Shown here: piece by piece, positions 26,233 to 60,562 of the stretch
Layout of the letters: each line of letters begins with the position of its first letter
Numbering within the stretch: position 1 is the first letter of the stretch
Assembly: GCA_964515035.1 (NCBI GenBank)
Contig: CAZEUO010000006.1
Location: 10,103-74,102, forward strand
DNA from: an uncultured Planctomycetales bacterium
GTDB taxonomy: Bacteria; Omnitrophota; Gorgyraeia; Zapsychrales; CAZBRU01
Reading direction: 5' to 3'
DNA length: 64,000 nucleotides
Notes under the pieces: model-generated
Databases searched by the model: none
Told to the model about the DNA's origin: nothing
Seen by the model: the letters and a program-made list of their open reading frames with translations, nothing else
Translations under genes and position numbers: made by a program

Positions 26233-26306
26233 GGGCCCATAGCTCAGGCGGTTAGAGCAACTGACTCATAATCAGTGGGTCGGAGGTTCGAGCCCTCCTG
26301 GGCCCA
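26233..26306 (+). tRNA. tRNA-Met (anticodon CAT; elongator or Ile2-type), CCA not encoded; integration target
   Basis: Cloverleaf folded by hand. Acceptor GGGCCCA/TGGGCCC. Anticodon loop CTCATAA. T-loop TTCGAGC. Confidence 0.85.
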
Positions 26307-26460: not shown

Positions 26461-26537
26461 GGGCGCATAGCTCAGCTGGATAGAGTGCTGCCCTCACATG
26501 GCAGAGGTCGAAGGTTCGACTCCTTCTGCGCCCACCA
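26461..26537 (+). tRNA. tRNA-Val (anticodon CAC), CCA encoded
   Basis: Acceptor GGGCGCA/TGCGCCC. Anticodon stem CTGCC/GGCAG with loop CTCACAT. T-loop TTCGACT. 3' ACCA. Confidence 0.85.
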
Positions 26538-27289: not shown

Positions 27290-27744
27290 AATCGATCGAG
27301 CTCTTTGTCGATGGGGCTTGCAGCGGAAACCCCGGGGAGGCGGGAATCGGGGTCGTCGTTATCGAAAAAGGCAAAACGATTAAAAACATTTCGCTTTCCA
27401 TCGGTCAAGCGACGAATAATATTGCCGAATATACGGCGCTCATCTTTGGGCTTCAGGAAGCGCTGATTCTCAAAGCTGATAAGGTTCGAGCGAATACCGA
27501 TAGCGAGCTTTTGTACAATCAAATCAACGGTAGTTACAAGATTAAGAACCCGACTTTAAAAGTTCTCGTTGCACAAGTTGAGCATTTATTGAAAGGGTTT
27601 AAGCAGGTAGAAATGAAGCGTGTCCCGCGCGAACAAAATCGAGATGCGGACACGTTGGCAACAAAAGCTATTAAAAAGGAACAAGCCAAGGTAGTCGCCC
27701 CGCTATTCGTAGTCGGGGAGGAAAGTCCGAGCTCCGAAGGATAA
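27286..27744 (+). CDS. rnhA: ribonuclease HI-like protein
   Basis: ELFVDGACSGNPGEAGIGVVV...NNIAEYTALIFGL...NTDSELL...REQNRDADTLA gives the D-E-D-D RNase H fold motifs. Its 3' end overlaps rnpB. Confidence 0.7.
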   Translation: MKSIELFVDGACSGNPGEAGIGVVVIEKGKTIKNISLSIGQATNNIAEYTALIFGLQEALILKADKVRANTDSELLYNQINGSYKIKNPTLKVLVAQVEHLLKGFKQVEMKRVPREQNRDADTLATKAIKKEQAKVVAPLFVVGEESPSSEG

Positions 27745-28082
27745 TGCATCCCGGTAATGCGGGATACTTTTGAGGTCTGTCGCAAGACAGCTTTCGAAAG
27801 GAAGATTAGAGCTACAGTGACGATACCTGGTGCTTATCCCGCTCACGCGGGACAAGTACTGGGGGTGAAACGAGCAATCTCTGCAGGGAGCAAGGCCAAA
27901 TAGGAAAGGATCCCGTACTAATTTTGCTTCACAAAATTAGTGCTGGGACGAAGTTGATCCGCTTCGTCAGGACTTTCGGGTAGGCTGCAAGAATCCGGCG
28001 AGCAATCACCGGAGTTAGTCAAATGACTATCCATCTCGCCTTGAAAAAAATCGAGAGGAACAGAACTCGGCTTACTGGCTTG
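27682..28082 (+). ncRNA. rnpB: RNase P RNA (rnpB), bacterial type A
   Basis: GAGGAAAGTCCGAGCTCC (P4 5' strand), GGGTGAAA, GAGCAAGGCCAAATAGG, GGGTAGGCTGC, and ACAGAACTCGGCTTA (P4 3' strand) match conserved blocks of E. coli M1 RNA in the correct order. P1 pairing caagcca/tggcttg. Confidence 0.8.
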
Positions 28083-28232
28083 TTCAATGAGCACGCGACT
28101 TATGTCGTCCTACGGACGACATAAGTCGCTGTGCGAATGAATCCCAAACATTTTTTGTGAGAAAAATGTTTGGGACCTAAAGTGCAGAAAACTTTTAAAC
28201 GCAATCCAAACGAATAAGAAAGGGTCAATACT

Positions 28233-39240: not shown

Positions 39241-39531
39241 ACTTTTTACGGCAATTCTCAGATTCCGCATCCTCGTTTTCCTCGGATGCGGAATTGATTC
39301 GTCCGCCTTGCGTCCTGCGTTCCGCAGGACGGCGGACGAATCAAGAAACCGCTTTCTTATTTTTCAAATTATTTGAAAACGCTTTCCTAAAACGCCTTTC
39401 AAAGCCTTGTTTCGATGGTAGGCGATGTTATACTTCGAGTAAGAAAACGAAAGAAAGGCTATGAGCTAACTTATTTCCGAAAACGCGAACGCAAAACCCA
39501 TTTTGATCCCCCACCAGCCATGGATGGGATA

Positions 39532-39592
39532 GCCGGGTTACCGAAGAAATAAGTCTTTTAAAAGGCACTATTTTGAGGTAACCCGGTTTTTT
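39532..39592 (+). terminator. intrinsic-terminator-like hairpin plus T7 tract inside the leader of ORF 39609 (candidate attenuator)
   Basis: ccgggttacc ... ggtaacccgg ttttttt. The 5' arm overlaps an alternative pairing ggctat/atagcc. Confidence 0.4.
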
Positions 39593-39608
39593 TGTTGAAA
39601 GGTGACGC

Positions 39609-39959
39609 ATGAAGGGGGCAAAAACAATGAGGGAAATTCTTTTTAAAAACCAGACATCGCTAAAAAATAGGCGCCGGGTTATTTGCGTCTGTGAGAAGGC
39701 GGAAAGCAAAGAGGTCACAACCCGCGTTCATAAGGTTTTTATTTATGTGGTCGGCCGGGAAGTGGAGGCGGTCGAAGATATTCCTGCTCCGGTCTTTTCC
39801 ATCATCAAACACTTCAATACCAAAACCAAAGAGGAAAAGTTTGCCTTTCGCGTTAAAGGCATGTTTTATGTTGTCAAAGACAACGGCTATTTGATGGTCC
39901 ATTTCTGCCACTCCCTTCGCATTGATGTTGCCCGCAAGAGCAAAGTCTCCGCTTCCTAA
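39609..39959 (+). CDS. hypothetical protein (116 aa)
   Basis: ORF with RBS gaaagg preceded by a structured leader. No family recognised. Confidence 0.4.
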   Translation: MKGAKTMREILFKNQTSLKNRRRVICVCEKAESKEVTTRVHKVFIYVVGREVEAVEDIPAPVFSIIKHFNTKTKEEKFAFRVKGMFYVVKDNGYLMVHFCHSLRIDVARKSKVSAS

Positions 39960-55223: not shown

Positions 55224-56651
55224 ATGAAAAATAATTTTACATGGATCTTTGTGAGGCTAAAAGGGTTAAGGCATGAATTGGCTTTTGCTTTTGGCCTTGT
55301 CATGTTGGCAACTCTGGTTTTTTTAGGTTATCTTTTCCCCGGAATTTCCTCCGCTTTCTCCGTTCAGACGCATTTGCCTTATGCTGTTTTTCTGGCGGTA
55401 TTAATTGTTGTCCTGGCCTTCTTGTGGATTCGTCAGGTTTTGATTAATCCGGTAATCAACATTAGCCAAAGAATTGCGGCCGGGGATTATAACCGGCAGA
55501 TTGTACTCACCAGAGAAGATGAGATCGGCGAATTAGGAGATGCCTTAAACCGCATGACATCCCGAATCCGCACGGACATGGAGGAATTAAAGAATTTTGG
55601 CCAGAAAACCGAGGCCATTAATGCGGATATTAATAAAAGGATTCTTTCTCTTTCCGGCCTTCTGCAAATCAGTAATCTGATTTCCCAAAATACCCAGCTT
55701 GACAAAATTGTTGACGTCGGTGTTGAGCGCTGTTTGTCCAGCGGTGAAATGTCTTTGGGCTGTTTAATTCTTAAGGATGAAAGGACAAATGATTTTACCG
55801 TCAAAACTATTCAGGGGGCCTTGAAGGATCTTTTGCTAAGTCAGGATTTGGATCAACTGCGGATCAAATTAGGAGAGGGGTTGTTGGGTTTGATTATTTT
55901 AAAGCGGGAAACGCTTTTAATCGATAGAAATTCCAAAGAGACCGCGGAAATCAGGGATTTCAGGAAACAGTTTTCCATCGTCAATTGTTTAGGGTTGCCC
56001 ATCAGTTGCCGCGGAAAAACCCACGGAATACTTTTAGTCGGGAACCAAAAAAGCGATTACATTTTCTCTTCATCTGACAAAGAATGGCTGGATCTGTTTG
56101 TAAAACAGATCGCTATTGCCATTGAAAATATCCTCTTAGCCAACCAGGTTGAAAAGTTAGAAGTGATCGACAGCTTAACGGGGCTGTATAACCATACGTA
56201 CATTCAGGAAAGGCTCGATGAAGAAATTAAACGGGCGATTAGTTTTCAACGTCCGTGTGCCTTTGTATTATTCACCATTGATGCGTTCCAGGAATTCCAT
56301 TCCTCTTTTGGGCACTTGGCCGCTGAAAATATACTGGTTAAAATCGGAACGGCCCTTAAGGAGAATATTAATGACGTCGATAAGGCTGCACGGTTTGGAG
56401 ACCATGAATTTGCCCTGATTTTGCCGGAGCGAAACAAGCGTCAGGCTATTGATATTGCCGATTCGATTCGAAGGAAGATTGAATACCTTTTTGCTGAGGA
56501 AGAAAATCAGCAGAAACGGCTCACCTGTACGGGGGCCGTAGCCGAAAACCCCGTCGACGGAGTGCGGGCGGAAGAGTTAGTATCGAAGGCCCGGGCCATT
56601 CTTACGTCCGCTATAAAGCAAGGCGGGAACAGGATTTGCTATAAGGTTTAA
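55224..56651 (+). CDS. membrane HAMP-GAF-GGDEF domain protein with degenerate active-site motif (GDHEF)
   Basis: TM helices. HAMP-like SQRIAAGDYN...IGELGDALNRM. GGDEF-domain context LTGLYNHTYIQ...RFGDHEFALIL. Confidence 0.75.
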   Translation: MKNNFTWIFVRLKGLRHELAFAFGLVMLATLVFLGYLFPGISSAFSVQTHLPYAVFLAVLIVVLAFLWIRQVLINPVINISQRIAAGDYNRQIVLTREDEIGELGDALNRMTSRIRTDMEELKNFGQKTEAINADINKRILSLSGLLQISNLISQNTQLDKIVDVGVERCLSSGEMSLGCLILKDERTNDFTVKTIQGALKDLLLSQDLDQLRIKLGEGLLGLIILKRETLLIDRNSKETAEIRDFRKQFSIVNCLGLPISCRGKTHGILLVGNQKSDYIFSSSDKEWLDLFVKQIAIAIENILLANQVEKLEVIDSLTGLYNHTYIQERLDEEIKRAISFQRPCAFVLFTIDAFQEFHSSFGHLAAENILVKIGTALKENINDVDKAARFGDHEFALILPERNKRQAIDIADSIRRKIEYLFAEEENQQKRLTCTGAVAENPVDGVRAEELVSKARAILTSAIKQGGNRICYKV

Positions 56652-57122: not shown

Positions 57123-58850
57123 GTGTTTTCACTGAAAGAGCGCCTTAAAGAAATTTTAATTCGTGACAATATCATCAAGCAGGAAGATCTTGACCGGGCG
57201 CTTGAGGTTCAAAAAAAAGAGGGCGGCGACCTAAGCAAAATCCTCGTTAAGATGAATCTCATTAGCGAGGATGACTTGACGATGTTGTTGAGTCAGGGTT
57301 TGGGAATGCCCCCCATTGATATCGGCCGACTCAAAATTGATCCGGCAGTTGTCAGAATGATTCCCCAGGAAGTGGCGATCAATTTTAGGATTATCCCGGT
57401 TTCTAAGATTGGTGGGAGCCTGACGTTGGCCATGGCTGATCCGCTTAATATTTTTGCTATCGATAATGTCAAGGCGTTGACCGGTCTTGAAATCAACCCC
57501 ATTATCGGGCGTTCCAAGGATATTTTGCAGGCCATCAACACCTACTATAATGAGGATGCAACATCAAAGTTTGCCCAAATTATGAAGCAGATGGACGATG
57601 CGGAAAATCTCGAATTGATCAAAGACGCCGCAGCGGGGATGGATCAGCAGGATATCGAGAATTTAACCAAAGAAGCGCCTATCATCCGGTTGACGGATGC
57701 GATTGTCAAGCAAGGGGTTATCGCCAAGGCGAGCGATATTTTTATTGAGCCGCTGGAAAAAGCATTACGCGTCCGTTATCGCGTCGATGGTATTATCCGG
57801 GAAGTCGACCAACTGTCCAAATCGCTGCATTTTCCGATTGTCTCCAGGATTAAAATTCTTTCCAGTCTTGATATTTCCGAACATCGGCTTCCCCAAGATG
57901 GGCGATTTAAAGTCGTCATGGATAGTTCCAAAGAGGTTGACTTGCGTGTCAGCGTTCTTCCTGCGGCATACGGGGAAAAGGTTGTGTTGAGAATTCTGGA
58001 CAAGACGGCAGCCATGCTGGATATTGCCAAATTAGGATTCACCGATAAATCACTCGAAACGTTAAAACAGTGTTCTTTGAAACCTCACGGAATGATTTTA
58101 ACTTGCGGGCCAACGGGAAGCGGAAAAACAACCACCCTTTATTCCATCTTAAAATTTATTGATACGCCGGAGAGAAATATTATTACCGTTGAAGACCCGG
58201 TCGAATATCAAATGAAGGGTATTAGCCAGGTCAATGTGCGTTCAGAGGTGGGCCTGACATTTGCGTCCAGTTTGCGTTCCATTTTGCGCCAGGACCCCGA
58301 TATTATTTTTGTTGGAGAAATCCGTGATTTCGAAACCCTTGATATTGCCATTAAATCTGCTTTGACCGGCCACTTGGTTTTGAGTTCATTGCATACTACG
58401 ACCGCATCGGGATCGGTTGTCCGTATGATGAATATGGGGATTGAGCCGTTTTTGATTTGTGCGTCTGTCATCGCGATCGTCGCTCAGAGACTTTTAAGAA
58501 AAGTGTGTGTCAATTGCAAGGAAACTTATATACCTCCTGATGTTTTGATTAAGAAAATTGGTTTGGATAAGGCGGCAGGCGGAAAGGATGTAAAATTGTT
58601 CCGCGGAAAAGGTTGCAAGGTTTGCGGAAATTTGGGTTATAGCGGAAGAATTGGAATTACGGAGATCTTAGTTTTGACGCCGAAGGTCAAGGATCTGATC
58701 ATGCGTCGGGCCGGGGAATATAAAATCAAAGAGGCCGGCCGTGAGGACGGTATGGTGACGATGCGCGAAGACGGATTGAAAAAAGCCCTTTTGGGGCTGA
58801 CCTCGCTTGAAGAAGTGCTGCGAGTTACGGCTGCGGACGAGGCAAAGTAA
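57123..58850 (+). CDS. pilB: type IV pilus / T2SS assembly ATPase (PilB/GspE family), paralog 1
   Basis: N-terminal T2SSE_N domain. Walker A GPTGSGKTTTL. Asp/His boxes. Tetracysteine CVNCKE...CKVCG. Confidence 0.85.
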   Translation: MFSLKERLKEILIRDNIIKQEDLDRALEVQKKEGGDLSKILVKMNLISEDDLTMLLSQGLGMPPIDIGRLKIDPAVVRMIPQEVAINFRIIPVSKIGGSLTLAMADPLNIFAIDNVKALTGLEINPIIGRSKDILQAINTYYNEDATSKFAQIMKQMDDAENLELIKDAAAGMDQQDIENLTKEAPIIRLTDAIVKQGVIAKASDIFIEPLEKALRVRYRVDGIIREVDQLSKSLHFPIVSRIKILSSLDISEHRLPQDGRFKVVMDSSKEVDLRVSVLPAAYGEKVVLRILDKTAAMLDIAKLGFTDKSLETLKQCSLKPHGMILTCGPTGSGKTTTLYSILKFIDTPERNIITVEDPVEYQMKGISQVNVRSEVGLTFASSLRSILRQDPDIIFVGEIRDFETLDIAIKSALTGHLVLSSLHTTTASGSVVRMMNMGIEPFLICASVIAIVAQRLLRKVCVNCKETYIPPDVLIKKIGLDKAAGGKDVKLFRGKGCKVCGNLGYSGRIGITEILVLTPKVKDLIMRRAGEYKIKEAGREDGMVTMREDGLKKALLGLTSLEEVLRVTAADEAK

Positions 58851-58852
58851 TC

Positions 58853-60562
58853 ATGGCAAAAACGTTAAAAGAAAAAATTTTAGAAACTCTCATCGAGTTA
58901 AAAAAGGTTAAGAAAGAAGACCTTGAATCTGCCGTTTCGCTTCAGAAATCGAAAGGGATTAGCCTTGATAAGGCATTAATTGAAAGGGGGCTCATTAATG
59001 AACAGGAACTGCTCATCTTATTTGTCAAGGAATTGAACATCCCACCGATCAATCTCTCCAAATACAAAATCGATCCTGGTTTGCGGGAGATTATCCCGGA
59101 AAGAACCGCAAGGCAATACCATATCATTCCCATTTCCGAGCTTGGGCACACGATAACGATTGCTCTTTCCGATCCGTTCAATATTTTTGCTATTGATGAT
59201 TTAAAGAATATCACCGGCCGCGACGTCGATATCGCCATTAGCACGGAAACAGAAATCCTTCAGGCCATTGATAATTATTATGGAACGAAAAGCGGTATGA
59301 GCGTTTCCGATGTTACGCGGGACATCAACACCGGAGAATTTGAAATTATTCAAGGGCAGGATACGAGTGGAGTCAGCGACATCGTGGTCGCCGAGAGCGA
59401 AGAAGCGCCCATTATCAAAATGGTTGATCTCGTTATCGGGGAGGCTTTAAAACAGAGGGCATCGGACATTCACGTCGAACCGGCGCTAGAAAATCTTCGA
59501 GTTCGTTATCGCATTGACGGGTCATTGCTCGATTTTTTGAATATTCCTAAGGCCAATCAAAATGCCGTTATCGTCAGAATTAAAATTATGTCAGGCCTGG
59601 ACATTACAGAATCGCGTATTCCCCAGGACGGGCGCTTTAAGATGCGGTTTTCGTCCAAAGAGGTCGACTTTCGTGTCTCTTCTTTACCAACGACGTTTGG
59701 AGAAAAAATCGTTATGCGAATTTTGGATCGGGGAGGCCTGTCAATTGGCCTCGAAGGTCTCGGATTTTTCCCGGAAGATATTGAGTTATTTAAGGAAGCT
59801 GTGGCTAAGCCGTTTGGCATGATTTTGGTCACCGGCCCAACGGGAAGCGGAAAATCGACCACGCTTTATTCGGTCATCAATAAATTAAACACGATTGACA
59901 AAAATATCATTACGGTTGAGGATCCCGTTGAATATCTTATTGAGGGTTTAACGCAGATTCAAGTGAAATCCGAAATTGGCCTGACCTTTGCATCCGGGTT
60001 GAGATCCATTTTACGACAAAGTCCCGATATTGTCATGGTTGGGGAGATCCGCGACTCAGAAACCGCAGATATCGCCATTAAGGCCTCACTCACTGGACAG
60101 CTTGTCTTTGCGACCCTTCACACCAACGATGCGGCAGGGTCTTTAACCCGTTTGGTTGATATGGGTGTTGAGCCGTTTTTAGTTGCCTCCAGTTTGGTCA
60201 TGGTGTGCGCCCAACGGCTTTGCCGGAAAATTTGTACAAAGTGCAAAGAACCGATCAAAATTCCCGACCAGGTTTTTAAGGAAATTAAATTTAAGCCGCC
60301 CAGTGGCGCGGTTTTTTATCAGGGCAAGGGTTGCGAATATTGCCGCCAGACCGGATATCGGGGGCGCATGGGAATCCTTGAAATCATGATGATCAACGAC
60401 GAGGTTCGGGAAATGCTCATCAAGGGCGCTTCTTCTCACGAAATAAAAGAATATGCTGTCAAAGAGAATGGTATGAAAACGCTTTGGGACGATGCGCTCA
60501 GGAAGTTGACGGAAGGCATGACGACCTTGGAAGAAGTCTTGCGCGTAACAACATCAGATTGA
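58853..60562 (+). CDS. type IV pilus / T2SS assembly ATPase (PilB/GspE family), paralog 2
   Basis: N-terminal T2SSE_N domain. Walker A GPTGSGKSTTL. Tetracysteine CTKCKE...CEYCR. Confidence 0.85.
   Translation: MAKTLKEKILETLIELKKVKKEDLESAVSLQKSKGISLDKALIERGLINEQELLILFVKELNIPPINLSKYKIDPGLREIIPERTARQYHIIPISELGHTITIALSDPFNIFAIDDLKNITGRDVDIAISTETEILQAIDNYYGTKSGMSVSDVTRDINTGEFEIIQGQDTSGVSDIVVAESEEAPIIKMVDLVIGEALKQRASDIHVEPALENLRVRYRIDGSLLDFLNIPKANQNAVIVRIKIMSGLDITESRIPQDGRFKMRFSSKEVDFRVSSLPTTFGEKIVMRILDRGGLSIGLEGLGFFPEDIELFKEAVAKPFGMILVTGPTGSGKSTTLYSVINKLNTIDKNIITVEDPVEYLIEGLTQIQVKSEIGLTFASGLRSILRQSPDIVMVGEIRDSETADIAIKASLTGQLVFATLHTNDAAGSLTRLVDMGVEPFLVASSLVMVCAQRLCRKICTKCKEPIKIPDQVFKEIKFKPPSGAVFYQGKGCEYCRQTGYRGRMGILEIMMINDEVREMLIKGASSHEIKEYAVKENGMKTLWDDALRKLTEGMTTLEEVLRVTTSD

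Follow-up and report, generated by a model that had tools for sequence, protein, structure and literature searches.

A conserved leader with a P2-less, GEMM-I-like candidate aptamer and an overlapping intrinsic terminator precedes an Omnitrophota-specific gene

The question raised by this locus is whether the approximately 230 nt of non-coding DNA found 5' of a small open reading frame (ORF 39609) encode an RNA that conditions the expression of this frame. The initial annotation of the window (i.e. the whole analysed stretch of DNA, 64,000 nt in length) had proposed a structured leader with mutually exclusive foldings, a candidate riboswitch or attenuator bearing some likeness to the c-di-GMP-I (GEMM) aptamer. 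Both the non-coding stretch and its structured character were borne out, as the 232-nt interval (39377-39608) folds 4 standard deviations better than its shuffled versions (z = -4.0) and contains a conserved domain overlapped by an intrinsic terminator. The element is situated in the gene order lepA, lepB, a small ORF, CDP-alcohol phosphatidyltransferase, plsY, element plus the 110-116 aa ORF, yggS, proC, an MTAP-like gene and ileS, and the order of the genes around it is kept in relatives (whose record titles read Candidatus Omnitrophota). What generally characterizes a transcriptional riboswitch, namely a conserved structured 5' leader domain having strands in common with an intrinsic terminator, was found in 16/16 leaders, with a promoter upstream and the ORF directly downstream of domain and terminator. 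We regard it as highly probable that the leader is a functional cis-regulatory element. The promoter, the RNA elements of the leader and the regulated ORF all lie on the forward strand.

Not all of the interval annotated as leader belongs to it: the assignment holds 3' of position ~39441, while the first ~65 nt (39377-39440) are occupied by a promoter and a palindromic operator. The promoter (39407-39434) is of the sigma-70 type and consists of TTGTTT (39407-12), a 16-nt spacer and a TG-extended TATACT (39429-34), from the position of which the start of transcription is predicted near 39441. The pattern TTGNNN-N15-18-TAYAYT was recovered in 70 of the 71 distinct loci of the ORF family, with 64 of these having TTGTTT-16-TAYACT. 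As in relatives with short leaders the same promoter stands directly ahead of the ORF, in the window's clade the ORF depends on read-through. Further upstream, the pattern GAAANCGNTTTC has just two occurrences in the 64-kb window, a distal palindromic box GAAACCGCTTTC (39345-39356, beginning 62 nt upstream of the -35 element) and a proximal one, GAAAACGCTTTC (39375-39386, centre near -60), the latter being a probable transcription-factor site. Among the 71 distinct loci a 12-bp palindromic box (GAAAnCGnTTTC) begins exactly 32 nt upstream of the -35 element in 60 and lies within 90 nt of it in 64. The promoter is phylum-wide in its distribution, and the palindrome at its fixed offset has the appearance of a conserved site through which the ORF gene would be activated or repressed. 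Some loci of the family possess two copies of the box, and in relatives a YCGTCG motif is often present just upstream of it.

Downstream of the promoter, an aptamer-like domain of 84 nt (39470-39553) was delineated by means of an RNAalifold fold (run on 15 sequences), pairing and conservation statistics and a sub-threshold Rfam c-di-GMP-I match. Its outer helix, P1 (39470-77 with 39546-53; 8 bp), is extended by two CG pairs (C39478-G39479 with C39542-G39543, across the bulge A39544-A39545) that we added to the RNAalifold fold. P1 encloses a junction formed by J1/2 (AAAAC, 39480-84), a 2-bp stub that we term mini-P2 (G39485-C39486 with G39491-C39492, loop GAAC), J2/3 (AAA, 39493-95), P3 (39495-99 with 39535-39) and J3/1 (A39540, C39541). 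P3 continues into an inner stem (39506-10 with 39526-30) and is closed by an apical 14-mer, CCACCAGCCAYGGA (39511-39524), which is invariant apart from its Y in 17/17 aligned copies. The idea that the apical CAU might pair with start codons was dropped, since its U varies to C.

The domain is far better conserved than its surroundings. In the closer relatives (those with 51-95% identical protein) it spans 82-88 nt and is followed by the terminator, and in 15 further distinct orthologous leaders its identity to the window amounts to 81-95%, while at the same loci the identities are 35-68% for third codon positions, 51-95% for the protein and 31-81% for the flanking non-coding segments. Judged by these figures, the RNA is under very strong purifying selection, stronger than that on the protein. 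Across the 17 copies 95.6% of the cells can pair (vs 22-50% in slid registers), and for P1 (CUUAUUUC/GAAAUAAG plus CG/CG) the pairing reaches 98.5-100% of the cells. In P1 and lower P3, six pair columns vary, all of them by wobble-compatible transitions only; two-sided compensatory changes in aptamer pairs amount to 0 in the 17 copies (close orthologs only), and the covariation score does not rise above the shuffle control for these same copies, all of which are orthologous and too similar to one another. The alignment of the leader in relatives, which had been suggested as a check, thus delivered conservation without aptamer covariation, and the fold is supported, as far as these sequences go, by conservation and pairing potential. 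Riboswitch stems are rarely near-invariant in sequence; the near-invariant helices met here are partly explained by the fact that most paired bases have two alternative partners. One leader (L079) carries two mismatches in P1, its 5' strand reading CUAAGUUC vs CUUAUUUC in the otherwise near-identical L007 (positions 114-121 in both), to be explained either by a natural variant that has lost its function or by an error in the assembly.

The second partner of these bases is found in the intrinsic terminator (39533-39593), which overlaps the aptamer-like domain and had been described exactly: a hairpin of CCGGGTTACC (39533-42) and GGTAACCCGG (39577-86), followed by T7 (39587-93; U7 in the RNA), exact, unique in the window and folding at -25.2 kcal/mol (a simple terminator scan misses it owing to its loop of more than 8 nt). 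The 5' arm of the terminator (CCGGGUUACC; CCGGGUURCC across leaders) is made of the P3 3' strand and J3/1, and in a second tier the P1 3' strand (AAAUAAG) is re-paired with a downstream partner that is variable among leaders. An overlapping terminator hairpin is present in 16/16 leaders (-18 to -31 kcal/mol), with a clear U-run in 14/16 and with an A-U to G-C compensatory change at position 8 of the arm in L001, L077 and L085. In the window the terminator-containing fold reaches -39.4 kcal/mol vs -19.9 kcal/mol with the aptamer enforced; as the terminator is ~20 kcal/mol more stable once transcribed, the default outcome would be termination before the ORF, and whatever stabilises P1 and P3 would give read-through. 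The data support the view that aptamer-like domain and terminator are mutually exclusive, and that the conserved competition against the terminator comes from P1 and P3 of the aptamer itself. The antiterminator envisaged in the initial annotation, a GGCUAU/AUAGCC helix, lies elsewhere than had been noted (at 39457-62 / 39529-34), and its 6-mer was encountered in 2/16 distinct orthologous leaders, which is not above chance, so that this part of the proposal was abandoned.

The proposed kinship with c-di-GMP-I stemmed from two short segments, and these are indeed present: ACGCAAAAC (39489-39497) and GCCGGGTTACCGA (39532-39544) are 34 nt apart and unique in the window (0 expected by chance). At the Rfam gathering scores (35 bits for c-di-GMP-I, RF01051, and 59 bits for c-di-GMP-I-GGC, RF03167; clan CL00126) nothing was recovered at the element in a scan of the whole window and 35 related loci, and no Rfam 15 family covers it. 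In a permissive scan no riboswitch family but c-di-GMP-I gave a match to the leader (18.4 bits, E = 0.35 for 501 nt), and in five relatives c-di-GMP-I or c-di-GMP-I-GGC matched at the same site with 17.8-22.2 bits (some of them best with the GGC model); all of these scores are below gathering, and their E-values would exceed 1 at the scale of the whole window. The first cmscan alignment of the window placed P2 on upstream sequence (GC at 39466-67) and was rejected, as that sequence is not conserved in relatives, where an alignment with P2 deleted outscores the one with an upstream P2. In the alignment of L075 (22.1 bits, E = 0.014 for 161 nt) the 18 model positions left out are precisely those of the P2 hairpin; it reads UUUCCGAAAAC-GC-UAA-[0]-C-GC-AAAGCC ... 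GGAU-AG-CCGGGUU-A-CCGAA, by which GC/GC, CGCAAA, the AG bulge and CCGAA are kept.

The resemblance also holds in the opposite direction. Run against the window and 83 loci (430 kb in all), a covariance model built from the element (R1) retrieved no more than the orthologous leaders, its best match besides these being one in L013 (3546-3628, 16.2 bits), with J2/3, P3 and J3/1 as the common part. The site of this match is the only Rfam-certified riboswitch of the GEMM-I clan in the ~237 kb of loci that were scanned at the gathering threshold (RF03167, 64.1 bits). The certified c-di-GMP-I-GGC riboswitch (L013 3535-3619) is situated in a more distant relative, just downstream of its ORF homolog and ahead of a type IV pilin-like gene (N-terminal GFTLVEIMIVVAIIALLAAIAIPN; region to 4150), and it follows that Omnitrophota do use GEMM-I-type riboswitches. 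As judged by these model matches, the resemblance to GEMM-I is real and reciprocal, yet the element is not a member of the c-di-GMP-I family. No further copies of the element outside the orthologous leaders were found in the window, in 88 loci or in a viral collection; the element was seen at one gene only (little DNA per genome was covered). Second-messenger riboswitches usually have several targets per genome, and the occurrence at a single gene may count, weakly, against a riboswitch of this type.

What is retained from the c-di-GMP-I architecture and what is lost can be specified by position. GEMM-I is defined by a P1 formed by the sequences flanking P2 and P3, with the P2 stem-loop adjoining P3 and usually bearing a GNRA tetraloop that docks into a tetraloop receptor in P3 (PMC4744006). 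In common with this family (Vibrio cholerae Vc2 as reference) the element has a P1 made from the flanks with an AA bulge on its 3' side, an A-rich J1/2, two G-C pairs at the base of P2, ACGC-AAA (the A47 equivalent), R-C-CGAA (the C92 equivalent), the lower half of P3 with its A/U-G bulge, and an aptamer overlapping an intrinsic terminator. It differs in that the P2 stem-loop is reduced to a stub of 2 bp and a 4-nt loop (8 nt; GC-NRAC-GC), in the absence of both GNRA tetraloop and receptor (the receptor region of the model is unmatched), in a P3 apex that is an unrelated invariant 14-mer, and in scores of about half the gathering values at an element known from one gene in one phylum. In GEMM-I, A47 is the first A after GACGC and C92 is the Watson-Crick partner of the second ligand guanine. 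Both equivalents here (A39493 and C39541, aligned to those model positions) are invariant in 17/17 copies. An interhelical Watson-Crick C-G pair between P2 and P3 has been called universally conserved (PMC4744006), and its candidate partners in the element, C39490 and G39532, are C and G in 16/17 copies and never covary.

The picture is different at the other base-specific contact. G20 contacts one ligand guanine by pairing with its Hoogsteen edge (PMC6140456), and mutation of G20 in Vc2 entails a 30,000-fold loss of affinity (PMC4744006). The equivalent position of the element (39484) is C in the window and is distributed as C 10, A 5, G 1 and U 1 over the 17 aligned copies. Cyclic GMP-AMP (cGAMP)-sensing GEMM-Ib has A at position 20, and an assignment to an A20 variant of the cGAMP type was dropped, as the position is not fixed as A. 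More generally, the variants of GEMM-I (c-di-GMP-I-GGC, c-di-GMP-I-UAU and GEMM-Ib) have the full three-helix architecture including P2, whereas the element is truncated and its position 20 is not fixed to any one alternative base. On the GEMM-I scaffold, changes in ligand contacts accompany a change of ligand (PMC6140456). Our literature searches brought up no earlier account of a GEMM-I that lacks P2, nor of any riboswitch in Omnitrophota.

The explanation that we favour, and for which we see about as much reason to accept as to doubt, is a riboswitch-type ON switch with a P2-less GEMM-I-like candidate aptamer. Transcription would start near 39441 from the conserved promoter, and the nascent RNA would fold into the 84-nt domain (39470-39553), built like a GEMM-I junction in which P2 is cut down to two base pairs and a 4-nt loop and the tetraloop receptor of P3 gives way to the invariant apex CCACCAGCCAYGGA. 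The 5' arm of the terminator (39533-39593) draws on the 3' strands of P3 and P1. Without ligand this terminator would win and end transcription ahead of the ORF; with a ligand bound at the junction, P1 and P3 would stay closed while the RNA is being made, the terminator would be blocked and read-through would follow. The retention of the A47 and C92 equivalents and of the candidate interhelical C-G pair, together with the loss of G20 and P2, suggests a nucleotide signal containing guanine that would be read differently from c-di-GMP in GEMM-I; c-di-GMP itself is a possible, not a favoured, ligand. The signalling context lends support, as the organism encodes a GGDEF cyclase and MshEN receptors and a relative has the true GEMM-I-GGC riboswitch before its pilin-like gene. 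The c-di-GMP machinery that had been noted downstream is present in the form of a HAMP-GAF-GGDEF protein (55224-56651) and two MshEN-T2SSE ATPases (57123-58850 and 58853-60562), but these genes lie 16-21 kb downstream of the element and outside its operon. Only tentatively do we go as far as suggesting a new riboswitch class ('mini-GEMM'), possibly derived from or converging on the c-di-GMP-I junction, without the P2 arm and the G20 contact, which would bind a ligand other than c-di-GMP (e.g., a guanine mononucleotide, a linear dinucleotide or another nucleotide signal, via the C92-type site), be confined to Omnitrophota, carry a translated two-codon ORF abutting P1, and control a phylum-specific, essential-looking gene.

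The same switch could be thrown by a protein instead of a small molecule, an alternative that is the chief competitor of the favoured explanation but that we hold to be rather unlikely: a protein (perhaps the ORF product, by autoregulation, or another RNA-binding factor) would bind the CCACCAGCCAYGGA apex and the junction and thereby stabilise P3 and P1, the GEMM-I likeness being convergent or vestigial. The comparison with the BglG/SacY/LicT antiterminators and their RAT hairpins is instructive, given that in both cases the 3' strand of the antiterminator is common with the intrinsic terminator, and the highly conserved apex could here be the protein recognition site; RAT elements, however, are single hairpins of ~30 nt, whereas the domain has 84 nt and a multi-helix junction, and no cognate protein was identified. 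The near-invariance of sequence (and not of structure alone) throughout, helices included, the tie to a single gene family, and an ORF product that is a conserved basic beta-sheet protein all agree with protein binding. So does the presence of the apex in the leaders of the distant relatives L003, L005 and L016, without GEMM-like junction or terminator, from which it follows that the apex either predates the GEMM-like pocket or stands apart from it; some part of the RNA, at the least, thus has a function for which such a pocket is not needed, and the protein-binding explanation stays alive. It has to contend with the invariance, in the right structural context, of the nucleotides that match the GEMM-I ligand and tertiary contacts (the A47, C92 and candidate C44-G83 equivalents), with a reciprocal match to a real GEMM-I-type riboswitch that would be hard to explain if the likeness were meaningless, and with an ORF in which no RNA-binding domain or fold was detected. 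At the opposite end, the element could be a bona fide c-di-GMP-I riboswitch that senses c-di-GMP and is too divergent for the Rfam threshold, as the full-length RF01051 and RF03167 matches, correctly placed in the window and in five relatives, the GGDEF and MshEN proteins of the window and the use of GEMM-I-GGC in a related genome would allow. We consider this improbable in view of scores of 17.8-22.2 bits where gathering requires 35 and 59, of the missing P2 stem-loop, tetraloop and receptor, and of a variable position (C in the window) in place of G20, a direct ligand contact (PMC4744006, PMC6140456).

Two further explanations were considered. A putative mini-ORF, ATG-AGC-TAA (ATGAGCTAA, 39461-39469), ends directly at the first base of P1, and such ATG-NNN-stop frames are present in 12/16 leaders vs 1.09 expected from shuffles (maximum 7 in 5000). 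In 11 leaders the stop lies 0-9 nt upstream of P1, a fixed position relative to the helix with sense and stop codons that vary, and in 8/11 a Shine-Dalgarno-like purine run is found ahead. A ribosome that initiates or terminates on this frame could cover the P1 5' strand and prevent the antiterminator fold, in which case termination would report the capacity for translation instead of a small molecule. That such translation-coupled attenuation is the primary control appears quite unlikely, since it leaves 84 nt of near-invariant junction and apex unexplained and the mini-ORF is absent in 4-5 lineages with intact aptamer and terminator (L001/L087, L007, L009, L085); because of this absence we treat it as an accessory layer more likely than a sensor. 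Further examples of the mini-ORF are seen in L073 (1312-1320), L074 (2835-2843) and L075 (1827-1835). Finally, conditional control might be lacking, in which case the promoter, structured RNA and terminator would yield an independent small RNA (~150 nt) or an element that confers stability constitutively, and expression of the ORF would come from leaky read-through. A strong terminator that is also the minimum-free-energy state, and a sequence conservation like that of many trans-acting RNAs, would fit. We deem this very improbable: the 15-33 nt between U-run and start codons leave no room for a second promoter, the same promoter directly drives the ORF in relatives without the element, and in every copy the terminator 5' arm consists of aptamer strands, the hallmark of a switch.

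The regulated ORF (39609-39959) codes for 116 aa from the ATG at 39609 or for 110 aa from the ATG at 39627. It was correctly noted as a small ORF and belongs to a family without known function; its start, in turn, is likelier 39627 than 39609, because most homologs start at the residue aligned with M7, and the ATG at 39627 is preceded by the Shine-Dalgarno sequence AAGGGGG. All of the 141 homologs are unnamed and the family is Omnitrophota-specific; no Pfam, NCBIfam or PADLOC family was recovered for the ORF. Its AlphaFold2 model (pLDDT 94) is all-beta with six long strands, for which no convincing fold match emerged among solved structures. The family is always located between plsY and yggS, and its invariant residues are P55, K61, E70, G78 and H95 (numbered from M7). 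In the most distant orthologs (L019, L025, L033, L058 and L070) an in-frame N-terminal extension of ~15 residues (MEFNDE... or MDFND...) replaces the structured leader.

Should a ligand be bound, a GEMM-I pocket would prove able to dispense with a helix (of three) and a base-specific contact (of two), whether in its original role or in a new one, which bears on the evolution of riboswitch specificities and on the minimal size of a cyclic-dinucleotide-type aptamer. The element would also be the first experimentally testable regulatory element in Omnitrophota, an uncultivated phylum, and would single out a small beta-sheet protein (conserved phylum-wide and equipped with a conserved promoter and operator of its own) as having a function under signal control. 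A two-codon ORF fixed against the outer helix would, moreover, represent an uncommon coupling of a minimal ORF with a riboswitch.

Several minor features were recorded at the locus and its surroundings. The leaders of L003 (5917-5933), L016 (2924-2940) and L005 (5887-5968) keep only a hairpin, GUCC-CCACCAGCCAUGGA-GGAC, followed by a long hairpin that is devoid of a U-run and ends just before the Shine-Dalgarno sequence; they may represent an ancestral, degenerate or translational version of the element. Two strong GC-rich hairpins without U-runs (~39262-39294 and 39293-39347), which may represent repeat-like elements or terminators of plsY, are situated 3' of its stop codon (39240); in L082, the closest relative, another GC-rich hairpin takes the equivalent place after plsY. 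Elsewhere, the window carries two tRNA genes (26233-26306 and 26461-26534) and a bacterial class A RNase P RNA (27678-28090, 143.6 bits) with long insertions relative to the consensus.
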